DNA from: a virus
Strand: one strand, 5' to 3'
Virus record (IMG/VR): IMGVR_UViG_3300032236_001304
Coordinates: 1 to 64,000 of that record
DNA: 64,000 nt
Notes under the pieces: model-generated
Seen by the model: the letters and a program-made list of their open reading frames with translations, nothing else
Told to the model about the DNA's origin: nothing
Database searches by the model: none
Position numbers and translations under genes: made by a program
In this document: one piece after another, positions 8,718 to 50,311 of the stretch
Position numbering within the stretch: the stretch's first letter is position 1
Layout: the number at the start of each line of letters is the position of its first letter

Positions 8718-8945
8718 ATGAGCGAACAAACACAACAACCACAAGAAGAAACACAAGTACAAGAACCACAATTAGAAATCCAACCAGTTAATTGGTATGA
8801 GTTTGATTGGGATAACAAAATTAAAACAATAGATGATATTAAAGTTATCTTTAAGAGTTTGAAAATGACAGTTAGTGATAAGGCAGAAGAATTTGATGTA
8901 TTAAAACAATATATCAAAGATGAAGTAGCTTACCAAACTAATTAG
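8718..8945 (+). CDS. hypothetical protein
   Basis: 75-aa ORF, closely spaced with the previous gene. Confidence 0.65.
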   Translation: MSEQTQQPQEETQVQEPQLEIQPVNWYEFDWDNKIKTIDDIKVIFKSLKMTVSDKAEEFDVLKQYIKDEVAYQTN

Positions 8946-8983
8946 TAAGTTTCCATATATTTATTCCTAAAAGGAGTAACATT

Positions 8984-9112
8984 ATGGCAAAAGCTAAATC
9001 AGCGGGTTCGAACAACAAGGTTTCATTCGGAAAAAGAAAAACAGGTTCCGCACAGAAATCTTACAACAAACACAGTCCAAAGCCAAAAACTTATCGTGGA
9101 CAAGGAAGATAG
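8984..9112 (+). CDS. small basic protein ending YRGQGR (42 aa)
   Basis: MAKAKSAGSNNKVSFGKRKTGSAQKSYNKHSPKPKTYRGQGR*; AAGGAG SD at 8971-8976, ATATTTAT at 8957-8964; YRGQGR tail recalled from small proteins of T4-like aquatic phages. Confidence 0.75.
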   Translation: MAKAKSAGSNNKVSFGKRKTGSAQKSYNKHSPKPKTYRGQGR

Positions 9113-9114
9113 AA

Positions 9115-9858
9115 ATGTTTAGTAGAGAAGTAACAAATGATTATGGTTCTTATAGTAGAGAAAATGATACTACCATTTTATTTAAAGGAGTATTTGACAA
9201 AAACTTTATAGAACTAAAGACAGTTGACCCTAATACGGAAACTTACAAAGTATTCAATTGTCCTTCTCAATCTATTAATTTCGCAGTAAAGTTGGGGAGT
9301 AATACATATATTCCCCAACATTTATTTGATAGATTAGTAACAGCATATAAAGAAAATAATCCATACTATACCGTAAACGATTTACTTACAATAGAAATGG
9401 ATTTATCTAAAACAATTGCATACATAGAAGGAAAGTATGGTGCAAAGGTAGAAACAAATACAATTACATATGTAGGTTCAACGACATCATTTACATCATC
9501 CGCAGCTAGTGGATCACCATCAGTTACCGGTTCTACTACAAATGTTAATGCAACTACAAAAACAGGTGTAAGTAGTAAGTTAGGTTTAGCAGGAGTTACA
9601 TCATTATCGTTTCAATTTTACAATGATAACATTTCCACCTCTTTAAATGAAGAAGCTATTATACAACATATATTATTTTTATTTGATGAAACAAATGTAA
9701 GAATTAGTGGAAAATATACTAATACTCAGTATCAAAGGAACGATGATTCACAAAGTGTTATATTAGAAAATCTACCGGCATCAACCGATGTAGTTAAGCC
9801 AGTTACAACAAGGGTTACTAATTTAGATGATTATCTAAGAGATGTACAACGAACTTAA
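9115..9858 (+). CDS. hypothetical protein with S/T-rich linker (possibly virion-associated)
   Basis: 247 aa; STTSFTSSAASGSPSVTGSTT segment. Confidence 0.65.
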   Translation: MFSREVTNDYGSYSRENDTTILFKGVFDKNFIELKTVDPNTETYKVFNCPSQSINFAVKLGSNTYIPQHLFDRLVTAYKENNPYYTVNDLLTIEMDLSKTIAYIEGKYGAKVETNTITYVGSTTSFTSSAASGSPSVTGSTTNVNATTKTGVSSKLGLAGVTSLSFQFYNDNISTSLNEEAIIQHILFLFDETNVRISGKYTNTQYQRNDDSQSVILENLPASTDVVKPVTTRVTNLDDYLRDVQRT

Positions 9859-9870
9859 TATTTATATTAT

Positions 9871-10281
9871 ATGGACATCAATAAGTTATTAAAAATTACA
9901 AATATGTACGCTAAAACTAATTGGAGAAAATATTTTGATGAAGGTGCCTCTCCGGCGGTTCATCAATATCTAACTGAAAATGGTGACAGATTATACCCTT
10001 GGATTCTAAAAATTATACAACAAGCAGTTGAAGATAATTTAGAAGAAGTGGCATTGATTAAGTTCACCGATTCTAAAATGTTTGCTACTATCGATAAGAG
10101 TGAGTATAAGGACCTCCTAAATAAAATGATGGAATACTTTATAGAAAAAGAGCAATACGAACAATGTGGAGCTATAAGGGATTTAATTGTATCTATCGAT
10201 AATCCACCTCAACCTAAACCTAAAAGGAAATATACAAAAAGAAAAAAAGTTACAGATGATTATACAAACACAAATATTTGA
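9871..10281 (+). CDS. protein with C-terminal UvrB/UvrC-like motif
   Basis: FIEKEQYEQCGAIRD resembles E.YE.AA..RD. Confidence 0.55.
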   Translation: MDINKLLKITNMYAKTNWRKYFDEGASPAVHQYLTENGDRLYPWILKIIQQAVEDNLEEVALIKFTDSKMFATIDKSEYKDLLNKMMEYFIEKEQYEQCGAIRDLIVSIDNPPQPKPKRKYTKRKKVTDDYTNTNI

Positions 10282-10918
10282 TAATATACTTTCTGTTGAA
10301 GAACAAGATATTTTATTAGAGTTTATGGAATCCGATTATAAAAATTGGACATTTTTACCATATATTTCTTTGGATGAAAAAGATGCTAAGATTGCAATTG
10401 ATGAAGGAATACTAAAGCAATTCCCAGCATATACATTTGATATTACAAAATCAAATTCATTAAAATATGAAAATATATTTAATATTTTGAAAAAAATAGA
10501 ATCAAATGTATGTAAAAATATAGGGGTTAAATTTCAACAAAATTATAGATATAAACTAAATTGTCAACCACCAATAGATAATTATACGATTGATGAATTA
10601 TATAAAAATATTCATTATGATAGACAAACTCAACATATGGTAATACTCTATTATGTTAACGACAGTGATGGCGATACTTTACTTTTTAAAAATAAAAGAG
10701 GACATGATGCACCTGCAAATAATAAAACAAAAAAAGAATGTCAGGATGGTATATTTGACAACGTAGAAATAATACAATCAATTACACCAAAGAAAGGTAG
10801 GGCAGTGATATTTGATGGAACATCATTGCATACGGCAGGTTGGTCTAATACGCAAAATAGATACGCGGTAAATCTAAATATAATATTAGAAAATAATAAA
10901 AAAACAAATTTAATATAA
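10256..10918 (+). CDS. 2OG-Fe(II) oxygenase
   Basis: HYD..LYYVNDSDGDT..FDGTSLH..R; probable start ATG10256 (MIIQTQIFDNILS). Confidence 0.8.
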   Translation: MIIQTQIFDNILSVEEQDILLEFMESDYKNWTFLPYISLDEKDAKIAIDEGILKQFPAYTFDITKSNSLKYENIFNILKKIESNVCKNIGVKFQQNYRYKLNCQPPIDNYTIDELYKNIHYDRQTQHMVILYYVNDSDGDTLLFKNKRGHDAPANNKTKKECQDGIFDNVEIIQSITPKKGRAVIFDGTSLHTAGWSNTQNRYAVNLNIILENNKKTNLI

Positions 10919-10922
10919 AATT

Positions 10923-11459
10923 ATGACAACATATATACCGAATCTTTTAACAAAAGAAGAATGTGAACATTTAGTAAAAGAATTTGACAATGAAAAAAAT
11001 AAATATCCAAACGGAGATGATACAAGTGACTTAACAGGTAATTCACTTGGATATTCAAGTAAAAATAATGAATTTAACAAATATTTAAATAAATTAAAAC
11101 CAAAAATATTGGAATTTTATCCTGAAAATACTGACTTGGCCAATGTCAACACATATGTTAGAGAGTATTTGAATAATTCAAAATTGGGTAGACATATAGA
11201 TAGAATGGATATTGGTGCAACGCTTTCATTATGTTTGGAATTTAATATAAAAAATGAATGGCCATTGTGTGCTGAAATAGAGGGAGAGGCAAAATGTTTT
11301 AATTTAAATGTTGGAGATGGATTATTAATGACAACCGCATATAAAACACCACATTGGAGAGATACAATGTTTTGTGATGAAAATGAAAGAGTAGTTCAAC
11401 TTTTTATACATTGGAAAGAAACCGAATATGTAACTAAAAAAATAAAAACAATACTATAA
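10923..11459 (+). CDS. 2OG-Fe(II) oxygenase
   Basis: REY..LGRHID..GDG..HWR..VQLFIHW. Confidence 0.8.
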   Translation: MTTYIPNLLTKEECEHLVKEFDNEKNKYPNGDDTSDLTGNSLGYSSKNNEFNKYLNKLKPKILEFYPENTDLANVNTYVREYLNNSKLGRHIDRMDIGATLSLCLEFNIKNEWPLCAEIEGEAKCFNLNVGDGLLMTTAYKTPHWRDTMFCDENERVVQLFIHWKETEYVTKKIKTIL

Positions 11460-11460
11460 A

Positions 11461-11994
11461 ATGGTAACAAAATATGAAAATGTATTATCGGATGAGTTAT
11501 ATATTGAAGTAATCGAATATGTTAATAATATTATAAAAAATAAAAAAACAAAACTTACATCTTCTAATTTAGAATGGGATGATAAGCTTAAAGGAAATAG
11601 TGAAGCAGTTTTAAGATATGAATTTGATAATAGTGATTCATTAATTTTTAAAAAAATAAAAAAAGAACTAGAAAATAAAATTCCATATTTTATACAAAGA
11701 ATGGTTTTACATTTGTGGCCTAATTTAAGTTATATAACTTGGCACGATGATAGTCAATCTACTGCCGCATTAACTTTATATTTGAATAAAAATTGGGATG
11801 ATAATTGGGGTGGTTATTTAATGTACAAAGAAGATAATGAAATAAAGGCAATTAAACCGGAAAAGAATTTAGCAGTTTTACAAGAAAATAAAGTTGGACA
11901 TTGTGTAACAACAATTAATATGGGAGCAGATACTAGGATATCATTACAATTTTTTTTAAAGCAAAATTTAAAAAAAATAAAAACATTACTTTAA
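11461..11994 (+). CDS. prolyl-4-hydroxylase-like 2OG-Fe(II) oxygenase
   Basis: WHDD..LYLNKNWDDNWGG..HCV..RISLQ. Confidence 0.85.
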   Translation: MVTKYENVLSDELYIEVIEYVNNIIKNKKTKLTSSNLEWDDKLKGNSEAVLRYEFDNSDSLIFKKIKKELENKIPYFIQRMVLHLWPNLSYITWHDDSQSTAALTLYLNKNWDDNWGGYLMYKEDNEIKAIKPEKNLAVLQENKVGHCVTTINMGADTRISLQFFLKQNLKKIKTLL

Positions 11995-12021
11995 TCTATT
12001 TAAATTAATAAAAAATATAAT

Positions 12022-12600
12022 ATGGCATTTACACATATAGAAATACCAAATTTTTTAACAAAAGAAGAATGTAATAAAATATTAGATTTTTCTTTAAATA
12101 ATTTAGAATTAAAACCAGGAGTAACTGGTCCAACTGGGGAATTATCAAAATATAGAAAATCAAGTATTGAATTATATCCGTATTATAATAAATTTCCATT
12201 TTTATTAGAAAAAATAAGTAAAGTAGTTGATGAATATATAAATGTAAAAGGACATGATTTAGAATATAGAAAAGAAAAATTTCAATTCACACAATATAAA
12301 GTAGGTGAATATTATAATTGGCATGGGGATAGAGAACCCGGTGGTAAAAATGATATTTTAATTTCAGGTCGTTATTGTACTATTGTTATACAATTAAATG
12401 ATGAATATAATGATGGTAATTTAGAATTGGAATTATTTAATGGAGAGCATGTAATAGTTGAAAAAGGAATAGGTAATATGGTTATATTTTTAGCTGAACT
12501 TAAACATAGAGTAGTTCCAGTAAGTTATGGTGAACGATATACCTTAGTAAATTGGATAGGTATTAAACCAAAAGAAAACTATAAAAAAACATTAATATAG
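12022..12600 (+). CDS. PKHD/P4H-type 2OG-Fe(II) oxygenase
   Basis: QFTQY..YNWHGD..QLND.Y.DG.L..HRVVPV..GERYTLVNW. Confidence 0.85.
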   Translation: MAFTHIEIPNFLTKEECNKILDFSLNNLELKPGVTGPTGELSKYRKSSIELYPYYNKFPFLLEKISKVVDEYINVKGHDLEYRKEKFQFTQYKVGEYYNWHGDREPGGKNDILISGRYCTIVIQLNDEYNDGNLELELFNGEHVIVEKGIGNMVIFLAELKHRVVPVSYGERYTLVNWIGIKPKENYKKTLI

Positions 12601-12656: not shown

Positions 12657-14156
12657 ATGAGAACAGTATTAATAGGTTCGGATTTTATGTATGATTCCAA
12701 TGGTAATTTAAAATTATTGGAAATAAATACAAATATAACTTGGGAAGGTTTGATGAAAGTTGAAGAAACCGCTGATATATTTGATTTAACAGGTTTAGAT
12801 ACTTTTGTTAAAACTAATAATTTTAGTCAAATACACTATGTTGGTGATATTGTAGATTTAAGTAATTTATTAAAATCATATTGTGATGAAAATTCATTAT
12901 TATATTCTTTTTATCATGTAGGTGGAGATGCTTTAACCGTTCCATATATTGAAGATGCGGAAGACATATTAATAATAAGAAGTGCATATGATACAACTGC
13001 ATTAGTAGATGATACATATTGTGCTGATAAGATTAATTTTATGAATCTTATTAAAAATGAATCATTTGGTTCTCAATTTGCTGTAATTAATGATAATAAT
13101 ATTTTACAAAACAATATAACAGAAATTATTGATAATGGAATTCATCCAAATTTTATTTTAAAAGCAAGTAGCCCTCATTATGATGTTGAGGTATATCCAA
13201 AAGTATTTAAAGTAACAAACCAAACTGAATTAGATACTTTAATTGCAAATAATGTTACAAATGAGTATTTCTTAATGCCATTTTATCTTAATACAAATAA
13301 AACATATAATGGACACCTTGAAATTATAAGAAGCTATAATTTATTAGTTCCACCAAATTTAGAATCAATTCAAATTGGACAATATACTAAATTAAACGAA
13401 AATATATTATTAGATAATGTTACATATAATGAAACAACATTTGAAATTGATGCAATGTATAGAGATAGTTATGTATCAGTTCAAAAAATGTCAGCATTAC
13501 CAAAGGTATTAGATACCGATTTAATTGAAATGGCAGATGGTACATTTAAAACTCCAGCTGAATTAGTAGTAGGTGATTTATTAAAAACAATAGATATTCC
13601 AAATCCTAATAATGAAGATACAGCAAATCCTACTATGAATTATGGTATTACATATGATACATTTATTGGTGGTACAAATTATTCATCAAAACCATTATTA
13701 GCTAAAAAACAAATTAATTCATTTGTAGTAATAAATACTATTACATTTGATGATGATACTAACTGGTATGATGCTGAGTTTTCTTCGTATTTAATAAACA
13801 GAAATGATAATATACAATTTGAAACTTTGATGGAATTAAAATCTGGTGATATTATGTTATTGATAGATAGTTCATCTGAAACATTAAATATTGTTGAAAA
13901 AACAATTAAATCAACACATACAACAAAACAAATTTTTAGTGGTTGGGAATTAACTGTTGAAATTCCTCACTTATTTTTAACTAAAAATCCAGAATCCACG
14001 GTTAATGCTAATTCATATGTTCAGTATGTTGCTGTTCAACACAACGCAGCTTGTCCATATGGTGCATGTTCACCTTGTAGTAATCCATGTGCAAGTTGTC
14101 TTAAACCAAATCCATATTGTGCACCTCAAAATGTATGTGTTTCAACGCATTGTTAA
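12657..14156 (+). CDS. circularly permuted ATP-grasp-like domain + Hint domain + 36-aa Cys/Pro-rich C-terminal peptide
   Basis: GSDFMYDSNGNLKLLEINTN resembles the glutathione-synthetase motif RSDYM..LKQIEINT; Hint motifs LIEMADGTFK..ELVVGD, ELTVEIPHLF and VQHN; then AACPYGACSPCSNPCASCLKPNPYCAPQNVCVSTHC. Confidence 0.7.
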   Translation: MRTVLIGSDFMYDSNGNLKLLEINTNITWEGLMKVEETADIFDLTGLDTFVKTNNFSQIHYVGDIVDLSNLLKSYCDENSLLYSFYHVGGDALTVPYIEDAEDILIIRSAYDTTALVDDTYCADKINFMNLIKNESFGSQFAVINDNNILQNNITEIIDNGIHPNFILKASSPHYDVEVYPKVFKVTNQTELDTLIANNVTNEYFLMPFYLNTNKTYNGHLEIIRSYNLLVPPNLESIQIGQYTKLNENILLDNVTYNETTFEIDAMYRDSYVSVQKMSALPKVLDTDLIEMADGTFKTPAELVVGDLLKTIDIPNPNNEDTANPTMNYGITYDTFIGGTNYSSKPLLAKKQINSFVVINTITFDDDTNWYDAEFSSYLINRNDNIQFETLMELKSGDIMLLIDSSSETLNIVEKTIKSTHTTKQIFSGWELTVEIPHLFLTKNPESTVNANSYVQYVAVQHNAACPYGACSPCSNPCASCLKPNPYCAPQNVCVSTHC

Positions 14157-14188: not shown

Positions 14189-14281
14189 ATGTCAAAAATA
14201 ATAACCGATTCAGATATCAATATAATGAATACAACATTAAACCAAGTGGGTGCATTAATTATTGCGGTTCATACTTCTTAA
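14189..14281 (+). CDS. small peptide (30 aa)
   Basis: MSKIITDSDINIMNTTLNQVGALIIAVHTS*, A-rich leader; not in the ORF track. Confidence 0.5.
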   Translation: MSKIITDSDINIMNTTLNQVGALIIAVHTS

Positions 14282-14307: not shown

Positions 14308-14634
14308 ATGGATTTAGATTTTAAAGAAATTACCAGTGCGTGGTATAATAAATTTGTACATACAAACGAAATGAAAGAATTGGCAGATAATAGATTAAAT
14401 ATCTGCTTAGATTGTCCATCTAAATTGGAGGGTATTACAGGATTTCCATTTAGATTAAGATGTGGTGAATGTGGTTGTCCATTAAAAGCAAAAGTATATA
14501 CGGATAAAACATATTTAGATGAAGGGGGTTCTTGTCCATTAAACAAATGGAAAGATATCGAAATAGAACACTTTAAAAAATATAATAAGGCAGAATTCAT
14601 AAAACCGGACAAAAACAAAAAAACATTATTGTAA
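14308..14634 (+). CDS. Cys-rich Zn/Fe-binding protein
   Basis: RLNICLDC..CGECGCPL..K..CPLNKW. Confidence 0.7.
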   Translation: MDLDFKEITSAWYNKFVHTNEMKELADNRLNICLDCPSKLEGITGFPFRLRCGECGCPLKAKVYTDKTYLDEGGSCPLNKWKDIEIEHFKKYNKAEFIKPDKNKKTLL

Positions 14635-15321
14635 ATGTCATTATTAATTAATGATGAATTAATATGGGTTTCAACTCCCAAGTCTGCAAGTACTTCTATA
14701 TTTAATGCTTTTTTAAATTCTAAATTAAACTTAAAAAAAGTAAATGGCTGGGAGTGGAATCAAAATGCACATTTGAGTTTGAACATATTAAAAAATGAAT
14801 TTGGTGATAAAGAAAGTGTTTGCATTACAAGAGATTGGTTTCAAAAATGGATTAGTGCGTTAAATTATATTTGGGATGTTATTGAATATTCTACTCCATT
14901 TGAAACAATATGTAAATGGGAAGAATTAGATAATACTTTTATATATAAACTATTTGATGAATCTTTTTTAAATACATTACATTTTTGCAGTAATGAAGGT
15001 TTAATGGTTTGTTTTCGTAAAATATTATTAAATCCAAATAATTTTACAGATAAGGATTATGAACCTTGGTTTAGAATGATGGGGTTGTTAATTTCAGAAA
15101 AATATTACAAAAGTAATCAAAAATGCACTTACGAATTTGATATTAAAGATATTGATAAATTTATCAATTTTATTGAAAATAGATTTGGTGAAAAACTTGT
15201 ATTAGAAAATACAAATAAATCAACAAGAAGAGAAAATAAAATAATCTTAAATGATGAATTAAAACAATTTGTTTGGGATAATTTTGAAAAAAGATTTGAG
15301 AAAACAAATCATTTAATATAA
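14635..15321 (+). CDS. sulfotransferase family protein
   Basis: PAPS-binding loop STPKSASTS and ITRD..KWISA. Confidence 0.7.
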   Translation: MSLLINDELIWVSTPKSASTSIFNAFLNSKLNLKKVNGWEWNQNAHLSLNILKNEFGDKESVCITRDWFQKWISALNYIWDVIEYSTPFETICKWEELDNTFIYKLFDESFLNTLHFCSNEGLMVCFRKILLNPNNFTDKDYEPWFRMMGLLISEKYYKSNQKCTYEFDIKDIDKFINFIENRFGEKLVLENTNKSTRRENKIILNDELKQFVWDNFEKRFEKTNHLI

Positions 15322-47164: not shown

Positions 47165-50100
47165 ATGAATAAATTAAAAAGAATTTATCACATTGCAGAC
47201 ATTCACATTAGAAATCTAAAAAGACACCAGGAATATAGAGAGGTATTTGATAGATTATTTAATGACATAAAAAACAGGGGAACTGAAGATTCCCTTATTT
47301 ATTTAGCGGGGGATTTGGCTCACGCAAAATTAGAAATGTCACCGGAGCTTCTTAACGAAATAAATTATTTTCTTAAGAAATGTTGTGAATTATGTCCTAC
47401 CATATTAATCGCTGGTAATCATGATTGTAATTTGAATAATGCTGGTAGATTAGATGTATTGAGTCCAATTGTAGAAGCATTAGATTTACCTAATTTAACT
47501 TATTTAAGAAATACTCAAAGTTATACCTATGGGGGTGTAAGATTTGATACTTTCTCTATTTTTGATGAGAAAGAAAATTGGGTATTTGAACCATTAACAT
47601 CTGATACTAAAAATATTGCATTGTTTCATGGACCTGTATTAGATGCAACTACTGATGTTGGTTATACAATTTCATCTCGTCATTTTACATCAGAAATGTT
47701 TGATGGATATGATTTAGCCCTATTAGGTGATATCCATAAAAGACAAACTATGATTTCACCTAAAGGTTGTAAAGTAGTTTATCCAGGTTCTTTGATTCAA
47801 CAAAATCATGGTGAAGCATTAGATAAACATGGTTATGCTATTTGGAATATGGATGATTTATCAGTTGAATATGTAGATGTTCAAAATGATTATGGTTATT
47901 ATACTTTACATGTTGAGAATGGTATAGTACCTGATGTAACTGATATGCCTCAGAAACCTCGTCTTAGAGTGTTTGTATCTAAAACCGATGCAGCAGATAT
48001 TAAGAGAGTTACTACTGAAATTAAAAAGAAATATAAAGTAGATGAGTTTACTATTACTCGTACCGACACTTTAGCTCGTTTAAGGACGGGTAATAAGGAT
48101 GGTAAGTTGAATGTAGGTAATGTGAACGATCCTCAATACCAAGCTGGTCTTATTAAAGATTACTTAGGTAGAAACTATATGTTGGATGATGAAACATTGG
48201 GTAAGATTGAGGACTTGAACAATAAACTAAACAAAAGATTAAATGATGATGATTTAGTTAAGAACATAGCTTGGAAACCAATTCGTTTTGAGTTTGATAA
48301 TATGTTCAGTTATGGAGAAGATAATATCGTTAACTTTGAAAATATGAAAGGGTTAATGGGTGTGTTCGCTCCAAACGCAAGTGGTAAATCTTCTTTGTTT
48401 GATGCATTATCATTTTGTATATTTGATAAGAGTAGTAGAGCTTTCAAAGCAGCTAACATTCTAAACAATCGTAAAACATCATTTAATTGTAAGTTAGAGT
48501 TCGATATCAATGATGAAAGATTTTTTATTGAAAGAACCGCTAAAACAAGTAAGAAAGGTGATTCAGTTAAATGTGATGTAAACTTTTGGAAAATAGAAGG
48601 TGATGAAATTGTAAACCTAAATGGTGATGAACGTAGAGGAACTGATAAAGTAATTGAATCTTATTTAGGTAAATATGAAGATTTTGTTTTAACTGCATTA
48701 TCTTTACAAGGAAACAATTCTCTATTCATTGATAAATCTCAATCAGAAAGAAAGGATTTATTAGCTCAATTTATGGGTATTAATGTCTTTGATAAGTTAT
48801 ATGACTTAGCAAGTGAAGATATTAAAGAAGTTCAGGTTTTATTAAGAAATTTTAAGAGAACAGATTTTACATCAGAGTTGGCAACAGCAGAAAGTAAATT
48901 AGAATTATTAAAAGATGATTACGAAGAATTTGAAATTGAGAAAGAACGTTATGAAGATAGACAAGATGAATTAAATGAACAAATAACTAATTTATCAGCT
49001 CAATTAGTTCCTATGGATGGTAATTTAGATATTAATGATTTGAATACCAAAAAACAACAATTACAAAATAGTTTAGAGGAATTAAAAGAATTAAGTATTA
49101 CCAAAGCTACAACTCTTAGTGATATTGTTGCTAAGGTAGTAGAACTAAAAAAATTATTAGCTGAAAAAGAAAATCCTAATGGTGTTAATATAGAAGTTGT
49201 ATATTCTAATTATCAAAAAGAACAAAAAGCATTAGTTGAAGCAACTAAAGTATATGATAATGCAAAATTACATTTAAGTTTAGCAAAAGAAAAGATTAAA
49301 CATTTGGATAATCATGAATATGACCCTAATTGTAAATTTTGTTGTGATAATACTTTTGTAAAAGATGCAATGAATGCAAAAAACACATTACCTCAAATAC
49401 AAGAGATAGTAAATCAAGCTATAATAGATTGTACTGGTATTCAACAAACATTGGATACTATGGAAGGTATAGAGGAACAATACAAAGAAGTAACGGAATT
49501 AAAAGCTAAAATACACAAAGGAGTACAAGCACATACAAATAAAACTTTAGAATTTAGTGGTATGGTTACTCAAAAAGAGTTATACGAAGCACAATTAACA
49601 GCAGTTGATTTAGATATTGAAAGATACTATGCCAACGAAGCAAACATTCAAAACAATGATTCTTTAGAGGAACAAATTGATATTAAGAAACAAGAATTAG
49701 CTGGAGTTAGTAAAGACCTAAGAGAGATAGCAACTAGATTATTAGAGTTAAATGGGCAGATAGTTCAAACACAATCTTACATTACATCAGTTACCGATAA
49801 GATGGCTGAAGCAAAAGATTTAGAAGAAAAGTTCCAAATCTACGAATACTATTTAGATGCAGTTAAAAGAGATGGTGTTTCATATGAATTGATTGCAAAG
49901 GCTCTACCAGTGATAGAAGGTGAGGTAAATAACATCTTACAACAAATTGTAGAGTTCGGTATCGTTTTTGATATGAGTGGTAAGAATGTGAACGCTAGGA
50001 TTGTTTATGAGGATCAGCATTGGCCATTAGAAATGTGTAGTGGTATGGAAAAGTTCGTTAGTGGATTGGCAATTAGAGTTGCACTTATTAATGTATGTAA

Positions 50101-50311
50101 CTTACCTCGTCCAAACTTTTTAGTAATTGATGAAGGATTTGGAACATTAGATAGTGATAACTTACAATCTATCTTTATGATGTTTGATTATCTTAAAACA
50201 CAATTTGATTTCATTAATATCATTTCTCACTTGGATGCAATGCGAGATGTAGTAGATACATTAGTTGAAATTAAAAAAATAGATGGGTTCTCACAAATAC
50301 AATATAAATAA
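47165..50311 (+). CDS. fused Mre11/SbcD-Rad50/SbcC (gp47-gp46) recombination nuclease
   Basis: DIH, GD and GNHD phosphoesterase motifs; Walker A APNASGKSS; CKFC hook; SGME signature; Walker B IDEGFGTLD. Confidence 0.92.
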   Translation: MNKLKRIYHIADIHIRNLKRHQEYREVFDRLFNDIKNRGTEDSLIYLAGDLAHAKLEMSPELLNEINYFLKKCCELCPTILIAGNHDCNLNNAGRLDVLSPIVEALDLPNLTYLRNTQSYTYGGVRFDTFSIFDEKENWVFEPLTSDTKNIALFHGPVLDATTDVGYTISSRHFTSEMFDGYDLALLGDIHKRQTMISPKGCKVVYPGSLIQQNHGEALDKHGYAIWNMDDLSVEYVDVQNDYGYYTLHVENGIVPDVTDMPQKPRLRVFVSKTDAADIKRVTTEIKKKYKVDEFTITRTDTLARLRTGNKDGKLNVGNVNDPQYQAGLIKDYLGRNYMLDDETLGKIEDLNNKLNKRLNDDDLVKNIAWKPIRFEFDNMFSYGEDNIVNFENMKGLMGVFAPNASGKSSLFDALSFCIFDKSSRAFKAANILNNRKTSFNCKLEFDINDERFFIERTAKTSKKGDSVKCDVNFWKIEGDEIVNLNGDERRGTDKVIESYLGKYEDFVLTALSLQGNNSLFIDKSQSERKDLLAQFMGINVFDKLYDLASEDIKEVQVLLRNFKRTDFTSELATAESKLELLKDDYEEFEIEKERYEDRQDELNEQITNLSAQLVPMDGNLDINDLNTKKQQLQNSLEELKELSITKATTLSDIVAKVVELKKLLAEKENPNGVNIEVVYSNYQKEQKALVEATKVYDNAKLHLSLAKEKIKHLDNHEYDPNCKFCCDNTFVKDAMNAKNTLPQIQEIVNQAIIDCTGIQQTLDTMEGIEEQYKEVTELKAKIHKGVQAHTNKTLEFSGMVTQKELYEAQLTAVDLDIERYYANEANIQNNDSLEEQIDIKKQELAGVSKDLREIATRLLELNGQIVQTQSYITSVTDKMAEAKDLEEKFQIYEYYLDAVKRDGVSYELIAKALPVIEGEVNNILQQIVEFGIVFDMSGKNVNARIVYEDQHWPLEMCSGMEKFVSGLAIRVALINVCNLPRPNFLVIDEGFGTLDSDNLQSIFMMFDYLKTQFDFINIISHLDAMRDVVDTLVEIKKIDGFSQIQYK

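Follow-up and report, generated by a model that had tools for sequence, protein, structure and literature searches.

The stretch of DNA considered here (the window) comprises 64,000 nucleotides, positions 1 to 64,000 of the IMG/VR virus record IMGVR_UViG_3300032236_001304, and carries on its + strand, at 12657..14156, an open reading frame (ORF) encoding 499 amino acids, with its stop codon at 14154–14156. From comparison of relatives and from predicted structure, we consider that this gene probably encodes a self-processing precursor, in which a putative ATP-grasp ligase domain is followed by a Hint domain apparently confined to C-terminal cleavage and then by a variable, Cys-rich cargo peptide. 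Hint domains are known for splicing in inteins, for cholesterol transfer in hedgehog proteins and for toxin release. The original prediction, made from the letters of the window, had proposed that the Hint domain of this protein releases a 36-residue peptide with eight Cys, whose fresh N-terminal amine might be used by the fused ATP-grasp domain. Self-cleavage by cyclization of a terminal Asn is well supported by the comparisons described below, and it appears likely from these and from the structural model that the cut does occur. The layout of ligase, cleavage-only Hint domain and hypervariable Cys-rich cargo is present in no paper that we found and in no family library; a literature search, with supplementary files (which could list the layout) outside its scope, returned no paper on an ATP-grasp–Hint fusion or on Hint-released Cys-rich phage peptides.

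The fusion protein matched no family in Pfam (none at E<=1 with the whole protein), PHROGs or NCBIfam, nine of its relatives matched PHROGs solely at their S74 or Hint2 ends, and a tblastn search of 50,697 phage records gave no match. At E<=0.001 a large metagenome protein collection contained at least 1076 clusters of relatives (90% identity), all unnamed, while an exhaustive search of 50%-identity representatives yielded 253 relatives; in IMG/VR the fusion gene is carried at 80 or more loci, the longest of the contigs measuring 335,630 bases. Two alignments were used in what follows, A1 with 26 close sequences and A2 with 101 diverse ones, so that column counts out of 101 refer to the diverse homologues of A2 and counts out of 238 or 237 to proteins matched by a hidden Markov model (HMM).

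The Hint domain and its terminal asparagine

The Hint domain extends from K283 to N463 (13503..14045, + strand), as judged by structure and profile matches, and column counts indicate that it lacks the N-terminal nucleophile and the block-B His. The AlphaFold2 model, built on A2, had a mean pLDDT (predicted local distance difference test score) of 90.4 and a pTM (predicted template modelling score) of 0.83, the tail alone being poorly defined. When the model was compared with the Protein Data Bank (PDB) by Foldseek, the Hint region matched inteins, Tetrahymena BIL2 (BIL, bacterial intein-like) and hedgehog at E 1e-7 to 1e-5. The best VIA-align match was BIL2 (6y75; Z 15.4, root-mean-square deviation 2.4, 142 aa), which was tied within 1 with inteins, and about 50 intein, BIL and hedgehog entries scored Z 12–15. 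In many inteins, for example 2in0, 1zd7, 4e2t and 1dq3, the VIA-align superposition runs from the first to the last residue of the chain, and because model residues 283..463 align in this way, K283 occupies the place of the first intein residue and N463 that of the terminal Asn. A profile made from A2 and compared with PDB sequences gave as its best match the KlbA intein (2jmz; E 2e-7), followed by BIL2 (3e-4) and the VMA intein (9e-4). The structure prediction that had been suggested as a check on residues 283–463 therefore returned a Hint fold on which inteins superpose, and the positions originally given for the K283 codon (at 13503), for H462–N463 (14040–14045), for A464 as the +1 residue and for the tail (14046–14153) are exact.

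The residues kept and lost by this domain follow a clear pattern. Position 1 (residue 283) is Lys in 40, His in 23, Leu in 16 and Ser and Thr in four each of the 101 sequences and is never Cys, so that the reported absence of Cys or Ser at K283 is a property of the family as far as Cys is concerned. The position of the block-B His (376), as placed by the HMM alignment to 2jmz, holds Ser in 65, Thr in 14 and Ala in 10 sequences and is S376 in the window protein, and the block-B Thr position (373), placed by the same alignment and therefore equally dependent on it, is Thr in 49 of the 101 and A373 here; no TxxH block B is thus to be found, in agreement with the original reading. Block F:4 (430, again located by alignment to 2jmz) is Tyr in 53, Trp in 34 and Phe in seven sequences, with W430 in the window protein and no Cys in any. 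Block F had been described as intact, which holds for the window protein in that H438 is present and does not hold for the family, where this position is His in 41 and Asp in 33 of 101. The F-block His assists Asn cyclization in many inteins, and cyclization of the terminal Asn can run without the N-terminal intein steps.

The terminal His462-Asn463 pair (14040..14045, + strand), the predicted site of Asn cyclization with the scissile bond at N463|A464, is identified by its conservation and by the structural match of its Asn to an intein's final residue. Of the 101 A2 sequences, 98 have H462 and 100 have N463. When an HMM of the last 57 positions of the module (ligase plus Hint domain) was run over 270 relatives, it matched 238, and the terminal Asn was present in all but one of these, as His-Asn in 228, Leu-Asn in three, Ser-Asn and Ala-Asn in two each, and Gln-Asn and Asn-Asn in one each. 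The residue that follows (+1) is A464 in the window protein, as had been stated, and is unconstrained in the family: among 237 proteins it is Ala in 39, Leu and Tyr in 25 each, Gly in 21, Phe and Val in 19 each, Ser in 17, Pro in 16, Asp in 12, Thr and Glu in 10 each, and others in the remainder, with Cys in two. Residues flanking the N-terminal junction of the Hint domain are likewise unconserved (n=101), and the conservation of the family stops exactly at the terminal Asn. This pattern is far above chance expectation.

According to the available part of PMC4031507, every splicing route depends on a nucleophile, whether at position 1, F:4 or +1. In the window protein all three are absent, and none is needed for Asn cyclization, so that a C-terminal cut is, on the alignments and the model, the sole reaction left open to the domain. 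The Hint domain also falls outside the inteins, A-type BILs and PT-HINT domains as these are defined, because the position-1 nucleophile and block B fail and no Pfam Hint model matches it.

The cargo peptide

The cargo of the window protein is a 36-residue peptide (residues 464–499; 14046..14153, + strand, by translation) with eight Cys, a single Lys (K483, codon 14103–14105) and no Asp or Glu; a search of PDB sequences with it returned nothing below E 9.6. In A2 the cargo spans 7 to 807 aa, reaching about 1200 aa among proteins outside that alignment, and among 237 proteins it is 30–39 aa long in 131, 40–49 aa in 39, 50–69 aa in 20, 100–199 aa in 27 and at least 400 aa in six. Cys makes up 19.2% of cargo residues, compared with 0.6% in the modules. 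The number of Cys is even in every one of the 197 short cargos (20–70 aa), being four in three, six in 50, eight in 135, 10 in eight and 12 in one, and so consistent an even count is, as a sequence pattern, a signature of full disulfide pairing. The suggestion that the peptide might be disulfide-rich or metal-binding can therefore be narrowed, since the even Cys counts favour the former and the latter is less favoured.

Besides its Cys, the short cargo has one further constant feature. At least one Lys is present in 197 of 197, against 144.6 expected from pooled composition, and exactly one in 150; in 2000 random draws from the pooled composition a Lys in every cargo was never obtained, a figure that is inflated by the relatedness of the sequences. 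The Lys persists across different Cys frames and in 96 of the 150 one-Lys cargos follows Cys-Pro. Acidic residues are absent from 70 of the 197, and in 130 of them the last Cys is the final or penultimate residue. The cargo evolves faster than the module to which it is attached: in 96 eight-Cys members, the non-Cys cargo positions were 50% identical where the modules were 80–90% identical and 68% identical where the modules were 90–100% identical.

In some relatives the cargo lies between the Hint domain and a second autoprocessing element. Six of the 101 A2 sequences (P0179, P0182, P0190, P0203, P0232 and P0240) continue past a short cargo into a canonical Hint domain (Cys1, block-B His and terminal His-Asn) and then a short Lys-rich tail; in five of the six this second Hint domain is over the Pfam cut-off for Intein_splicing or PT-HINT, and two further double-Hint genes were found at loci L102 and L104. 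In four other relatives (P0177, P0195, P0202 and P0247) the cargo, some 90 aa long and with abundant Cys, Tyr and Gly, precedes Peptidase_S74, which was over the cut-off in one of them. Peptidase_S74 is a self-cleaving endosialidase chaperone typical of phage fibre tips. A cargo bracketed by two autoprocessing sites makes sense solely if it is meant for release.

Further evidence comes from locus L081 (IMGVR_UViG_3300001528_000621), a complete phage of 187,848 bases with terminal repeats. Here a junction sequence of 31–44 nt encoding the last module residues (9361–9404) recurs at 10056–10087 (inverted, 100%), 10503–10533 (direct, 100%) and 11032–11075 (inverted, 95% over 44 nt), and behind each copy, in frame, lies a different cassette, one being of about 145 aa, one of 51 aa with eight Cys and one of 75 aa with six Cys. 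The whole region covers 9361–11124, and the gene for the CxxC partner protein (see below) sits among the cassettes, downstream of the fusion gene. The complete record yielded no match to serine or tyrosine recombinases (PF00239, PF00589), which leaves programmed site-specific inversion unsupported, so that any exchange would be by homologous recombination. Spare cassettes were present in one of the 102 loci scanned (1/91 and 0/11; several loci overlap on the same contigs), the scan having been run on DNA, a six-frame HMM scan being too insensitive for a junction of 10 residues; in the window there is no spare junction copy (a 23-mer was unique and a repeat search empty). One public read run holds 21% of the words of L081:9000–11400 and its contigs break at the junction repeats; no joints were seen in these contigs, the breaks being repeat-caused assembly breaks that are uninformative on switching. 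As read from these sequences, the L081 cassettes indicate that evolution treats the Asn codon as the border of the module, and they do not alone show switching.

Taken together, the end of conservation at the terminal Asn, the free swapping of cargos, the bracketed cargos and the L081 cassettes provide strong, if indirect, comparative support for release of the tail.

The ligase domain and neighbouring genes

Residues 1–280 (12657..13496, + strand) appear, from structure matches and invariant residues, to form an ATP-grasp amide-ligase domain of the eukaryotic glutathione synthetase/GspS (GS/GspS)/YgiC–YjfC type. Folded alone, this part had a pLDDT of 94.9. Among 48,161 representative PDB chains compared by VIA-align, the 18 top-ranked entries were all ATP-grasp ligases, headed by YgiC (Z 8.1, 197 residues), the glutathione-synthetase-like nematode effector GSS22 (8.0) and GspS (7.9), and continuing with trypanosome and plant glutathione synthetases (7.5), Cp1B (6.5) and trypanothione synthetase (6.2), with TTLL, ArgX/LysX (Z 5.2–5.6) and RimK lower in the ranking. 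Foldseek gave 25 matches at E<=0.001 (1e-6 to 1e-3), all of which, among those listed, belong to the GS/GspS clade, and leads from a language model agreed with this assignment. Members of the clade align from model residue 1 (Z 6.2–8.1), whereas classical ATP-grasps align from about residue 55, and alignment from residue 1 is consistent with the rearranged strands of the glutathione-synthetase clade, which are led by the E-x-N strand. The E-x-N motif itself lies at the extreme N-terminus (E22-I-N24; 12720..12728, + strand) in 101 of 101 sequences; a weak alignment of the E-x-N region of pyruvate carboxylase 1ulz (E 1.2) was not significant. E22, N24, R108, D118, P181 and R225 are invariant in all 101 sequences and K169 is kept in 100. 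In the GS/GspS clade E-x-N, Lys and Arg residues bind metal and phosphate, and the invariant residues are candidates for this role.

The window domain differs from its best fold matches, glutathione or homoglutathione synthetase, GspS and YgiC/YjfC, in being smaller (280 versus 370–600 aa), in its low identity to solved ligases (9–14%) and in its fusion to a Hint domain. The Z values are modest, and the assignment is made because the list of matches is consistent and the residues are invariant. On the structural model, then, residues 1–280 represent an ATP-grasp ligase that is small in size and of the eukaryotic glutathione-synthetase/YgiC type, and the original claim of a fused ATP-grasp domain is upheld. 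In the available part of PMC12568646, YgiC and YjfC are peptidyl-polyamine synthetases, homoglutathione synthetase couples gamma-Glu-Cys to beta-alanine, Cp1B relies on a set of R, D and E-x-N for its acyl-phosphate, and the GS/YgiC clade typically activates the C-terminal carboxylate of a small peptide.

The fusion gene is accompanied by two small genes. Directly after it lies a micro-gene of 30 aa (14189..14281, + strand), identified by conservation across loci and by its codon-position pattern: a related ORF of 24–30 aa starts 9–44 nt past the fusion stop in 87 of 91 loci by eye, or 80 of 91 by a strict pattern, and differences in the 29-aa group fall on the three codon positions as 1338/910/3482. 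Since third codon positions vary most, the micro-gene is considered a real gene, and the C-terminus of its product is conserved. The second gene encodes a CxxC partner protein of 108 aa (14308..14634, + strand) and is linked to the fusion gene, within about 2.5 kb and usually 116–221 bases downstream, in 79 of 80 IMG/VR loci. It is also found in the distant loci L081 and L093, in the latter upstream of and abutting the fusion gene. In 58 distinct copies of the CxxC protein, five Cys are kept in at least 90% and the K-T-hydrophobic-hydrophobic C-terminus is conserved; it is possibly a zinc ribbon, and among Pfam and NCBIfam it matched no family, DUF6171 being merely a lead.

Upstream of the fusion gene are four tandem 2-oxoglutarate (2OG)-Fe(II) oxygenase genes (10187..12600, + strand), two matched by PF13640 and all four by PHROGs. 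The last three (10923–12600) share the K-T-hydrophobic-hydrophobic tail with the CxxC protein, and these are the four products with such a tail among 61 + strand ORFs of at least 90 aa; presence of the tail on the oxygenases makes it more likely a docking tag than a site of ligation. The oxygenases of locus L104 bear the same tail. A relative of the window oxygenase designated 12022 was found in 64 of 80 loci. On the other side, a 228-aa protein (14635..15321, + strand), called sulfotransferase-like in the original prediction, has relatives near the fusion gene in 47 of 80 loci and no family match, its name being unconfirmed. In L104 a tryptophan halogenase (8843–10372; PF04820, E 4e-109) lies beside a double-Hint relative with a Trp-rich cargo, in a cassette that also has sulfotransferase-like and 2OG oxygenase genes, and in L093 a radical SAM (S-adenosylmethionine) gene fell just under the Pfam cut-off (26.8 versus 29.5 bits, E 6.7e-6). 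A tail sheath gene lies 2–5 kb downstream of the fusion gene in eight of 93 loci, some of them overlapping (L081:11257–13254, L093:8044–10092 and six others), so that in those phages the cassette borders a structural module. Unlike in these sheath-adjacent loci, the fusion gene of the window sits among oxygenase and methyltransferase genes.

The window represents phage DNA, with all 67 real-looking ORFs (100 aa or longer) on the same strand and no tRNAs found, and it forms part of a virus record of 88,442 bases, estimated to be 41% complete, in which the fusion gene is single-copy. It also encodes, by Pfam, a carbamoyltransferase, GT7 glycosyltransferases and a Mre11-Rad50 fusion, together with a baseplate J-like protein whose match was weak (E 2.8e-4, just under the Pfam cut-off). 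The Mre11-Rad50 fusion is a single ORF of 1048 aa (47165–50311) in which a Mre11-like phosphoesterase is fused with a Rad50/SMC-like ATPase. The sole DNA match to the window in 50,697 phage records was 170 bases of the carbamoyltransferase gene in Pelagibacter phage Mosig (68.8%). In a collection of cellular species genomes, two short patterns from A1 found no relative, an absence that is weak evidence, and patterns from A4, again two short ones, found one. This relative, L093, lies on CAYPEJ010000017.1, a 93-kb contig of higher GC with sheath and radical SAM genes in a metagenome-assembled genome labelled Anaeromicropila, and the contig is probably a phage binned into that genome. IMG/VR scans starting from P0176 and P0190 found no locus, and three short relatives (P0147, P0157 and P0246) could be fragments or could consist of the ATP-grasp domain alone. 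In one IMG/VR record (IMGVR_UViG_3300042892_005961; 211,168 bases; loci L051 and L068) the fusion gene is present twice, as diverged copies separated by about 38 kb.

Mechanism, alternatives and related systems

Our working model is as follows. The precursor would fold, and the side-chain amide of Asn463 would attack its own peptide bond to give a succinimide, as in step 3 of intein splicing. The resulting cut at N463|A464 would free a 36-residue peptide with a new alpha-amine and leave a 463-residue module with a succinimide end. The Hint domain has lost the residues for the early steps of splicing (Cys/Ser at position 1, the block-B His and the +1 nucleophile) and kept His-Asn. The cargo would be the variable functional product, evolving fast on a fixed Cys frame with one conserved Lys, and its eight Cys would pair into four disulfides under oxidizing conditions, for example after lysis; that these disulfides form seems, from the Cys counts, somewhat more probable than that they do not. 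The ligase would make one ATP-dependent amide bond involving the cargo, with either the freed alpha-amine or the single Lys as the amine. The carboxylate might be the cargo's own C-terminus, giving a ring to the new N-terminus or to the Lys, or might be supplied by either the micro-peptide or the CxxC partner, at its conserved C-terminus, giving a ligation to the cargo amine; alternatively, the ligase might amidate with a polyamine, as YgiC does. The ligase is expected to act on the cargo because it is under strong purifying selection and fused to it, yet we hold such a reaction only tentatively, and each particular version of it is unlikely when taken singly; the freed amine, put forward in the original prediction as a plausible substrate, could be one of several possibilities. 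Ring closure fits the short cargos, whose ends are near the first and last Cys, and fits the long ones badly. Tailoring of the cargo by the neighbouring oxygenases and other enzymes is conceivable and, in our estimate, falls a little short of an even chance.

Several points weigh against this model. The whole case is built on comparison and predicted structure. The F-block His is unconserved, and the tail has low confidence in the model, with residues 466–476 under pLDDT 50. The ligase Z of about 8 is in what the tool terms its 'middling' range, and no sequence model recognizes the domain. Pro begins the cargo in 16 of 237 proteins, and an Asn-Pro junction may cleave poorly. Disulfides form poorly in the cytoplasm, and no signal peptide was evident on the fusion protein by eye, no predictor having been run. 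Cargos of 500–1200 aa are a bad fit for ring closure, the lack of acidic residues in 70 of 197 short cargos excludes graspetide-type side-chain links there, and a single turnover would be costly for a ligase handling only its own fused cargo.

The first alternative accepts the cut and gives the ligase a different task: the enzyme would join the cargo amine or Lys to the C-terminus of the CxxC protein, the micro-peptide or a virion or host protein, and so act as a single-use attacher of cargo. We regard this as unlikely, though several points favour it. The nearest fold relatives of the ligase activate peptide C-terminal carboxylates, and ArgX and LysX, the partners of the zinc-ribbon carrier LysW, are among the weaker matches (Z 5.2–5.6). 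The CxxC partner is near-universal, its K-T-hydrophobic-hydrophobic end is conserved and so is the C-terminus of the micro-peptide. Attachment would require only that the N-terminus of the cargo or one Lys stay constant, which suits a hypervariable cargo. Some cargos bear BACON domains (two long ones, P0176 and P0185, of 800–1200 aa) or the S74 chaperone, as is typical of virion fibres and adhesins, and in eight of 93 loci, some overlapping, the fusion gene is 2–5 kb upstream of a tail sheath gene. BACON domains are carbohydrate-binding modules known from surface proteins of phages and Bacteroidota. Conjugation would, on the sequences, fit all cargos and account for the universal partner genes, but no conjugate is in evidence, the same tail occurs on oxygenases, which are unlikely targets of ligation, 16 of 237 cargos start with Pro, a secondary amine, and no CxxC gene was seen in the double-Hint locus L104 (from an ORF list by eye, with no dedicated search).

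A second alternative concerns the purpose of the cargo and is compatible with the cleavage mechanism. A constant head would carry a variable toxin, inhibitor or binding tip, diversified by recombination at the junction as in Rhs proteins or contact-dependent inhibition (CDI) systems. The order of constant N-terminal part, Hint domain and variable C-terminal part matches that of the HINT autopeptidases of polymorphic toxins in the available part of PMC3482391, L081 has three orphan cassettes behind junction repeats of 31–44 nt, and the cargo evolves fast. On the other hand, no immunity-like gene was identified, the constant part is a ligase of cytoplasmic type rather than a secretion or filament domain, orphan cassettes were found in just one of 102 loci scanned and the Hint domain has no Pfam PT-HINT match. 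We therefore think diversification of this kind improbable.

More doubtful again is the possibility that the Hint domain is a dead, non-cleaving relic and that the Cys-rich tail stays in place as a binding or targeting domain of an ATP-grasp enzyme with another substrate. Position 1, block B and +1 have all been lost, the F-block His is unconserved, and inactive peptidase domains do occur in polymorphic toxins (Zhang et al. 2012, PMC3482391, in the part available). However, a relic would not be expected to keep Asn in 237 and His-Asn in 228 of 238 proteins, nor would its last residue mark the exact border both of conservation and of the L081 cassettes, and the brackets formed by a second autoprotease are hard to explain without release. 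True splicing, whether of intein class 1, 2 or 3 or of the A-type BIL kind, would fuse the tail to the ATP-grasp domain and would be in keeping with the Hint fold, the terminal His-Asn and the best sequence match, KlbA 2jmz, which we take to be a class 2 intein without Cys1, but it is ruled out by the absence of nucleophiles at position 1 (no Cys, Ser or Thr in the window protein and none conserved in the family), at +1 (Cys in two of 237, closing the class 2 route) and at F:4 (Trp or Tyr, never Cys, closing the class 3 route), the flanks of the N-terminal junction being unconserved as well.

The proposed self-processing precursor shares features with several described systems. A-type BILs have the Hint fold, a C-terminal His-Asn and no +1 nucleophile, and their cleavage products dominate, in variable proteins (Amitai 2003 and Dassa 2004, via PMC4031507, in the part available); the BIL of C. 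thermocellum (2lwy) matches the window Hint domain at Z 13.9. As described there, however, BILs keep an N-terminal Cys and thioester and can cut at both ends or ligate, whereas here position 1 is Lys, His or Leu and a C-terminal reaction alone would remain; no BIL has been described fused to a ligase. The PT-HINT domain (PF07591) likewise stands directly before a variable C-terminal module predicted to be released (Zhang et al. 2012, PMC3482391, in the part available), with a constant head and swappable tail, and the L081 cassettes recall the orphan toxin modules of those systems. PF07591 nevertheless misses the window Hint domain while matching the second Hint domain of some relatives, and the present family has an ATP-grasp head, phage hosts and mostly Cys-rich cargos of 30–70 aa; no secretion domain or recognizable immunity gene was seen in the neighbourhoods viewed. 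Mini-inteins made for C-terminal cleavage (Ssp DnaB variants 6frh, 6fre and 1mi8) have the same fold (Z 14.5–15.0) but are engineered mutants of splicing inteins, whereas here the loss is natural and family-wide. In Tetrahymena, the Hint domain BUBL1 BIL2 (6y75, 6tmm) hands out a small protein module that becomes attached to a Lys, using a Cys1 thioester and no ATP (PMC8616854, in the part available), in contrast to the window protein with no Cys1 and a ligase domain of ATP-dependent type.

Two further comparisons concern the peptide and its enzymes. Graspetides, a class of RiPPs (peptides made on the ribosome and modified after translation), also combine a ribosomal peptide with an adjacent ATP-grasp enzyme, tailoring enzymes and proteolytic release of the core. 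The window enzyme differs in being fused to its own peptide, with release predicted to be autocatalytic; the graspetide ligase 7mgv scored just Z 4.2, well under the GS/GspS clade, and acidic side chains for cross-linking are missing from the window cargo, which has neither Asp nor Glu, and from 70 of 197 short cargos. In cyanophages, tandem 2OG-Fe(II) dioxygenases arrayed with halogenases and sulfotransferases (Iyer et al. 2010, PMC2938197, in the part available) resemble the genes by the fusion gene, including the halogenase of L104, but the described cyanophages have no fusion gene at tblastn sensitivity in the 50,697 phage records. For bacteria, Iyer et al. (2010) proposed that linked peptide substrates are first hydroxylated and then sulfated; in the part available, no phage peptide substrate is named.

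Extending the precursor model to all its neighbours leads to a one-polypeptide phage peptide factory, in which the Hint domain would unmask an alpha-amine, the ligase would join that amine or the Lys to a peptide C-terminus, tag-docked oxygenases, sulfotransferase-like enzymes and halogenases would decorate the product, and cassettes would swap the peptide. As a whole this is a speculative proposal with rather little chance of being right in every part. If it were true and the C-terminus were the cargo's own, the product would be a ring closed head-to-tail or tail-to-Lys over a frame of four disulfides, a viral equivalent of the cyclic cystine-knot peptides; if the C-terminus were that of the micro-peptide or the CxxC protein, the product would be a conjugate. 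Marine and lake phages have tandem dioxygenase arrays whose substrate is missing, and the proposal would also supply one.

A natural, family-wide Hint domain apparently confined to C-terminal cleavage and borne on an ATP-dependent ligase is a design absent from the papers and family libraries searched, and would represent Hint autoprocessing in a new architecture and host and an apparently undescribed viral way to make and release small peptides. The family is widespread: public metagenomes contain more than 1000 of its sequence clusters, on lake and sea phage contigs as long as 335 kb. If cleavage takes place as proposed, large aquatic phages make thousands of different small disulfide-rich peptides, whose possible targets include the host surface, competing phages, grazers and the virion itself, and the system could explain the rows of peptide-modifying oxygenases in such phages. 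It might also be of use in engineering, as a small tag that releases itself or an ATP-driven enzyme for ligating or cyclizing peptides, and the system as a whole could prove to be a new peptide-making machine.

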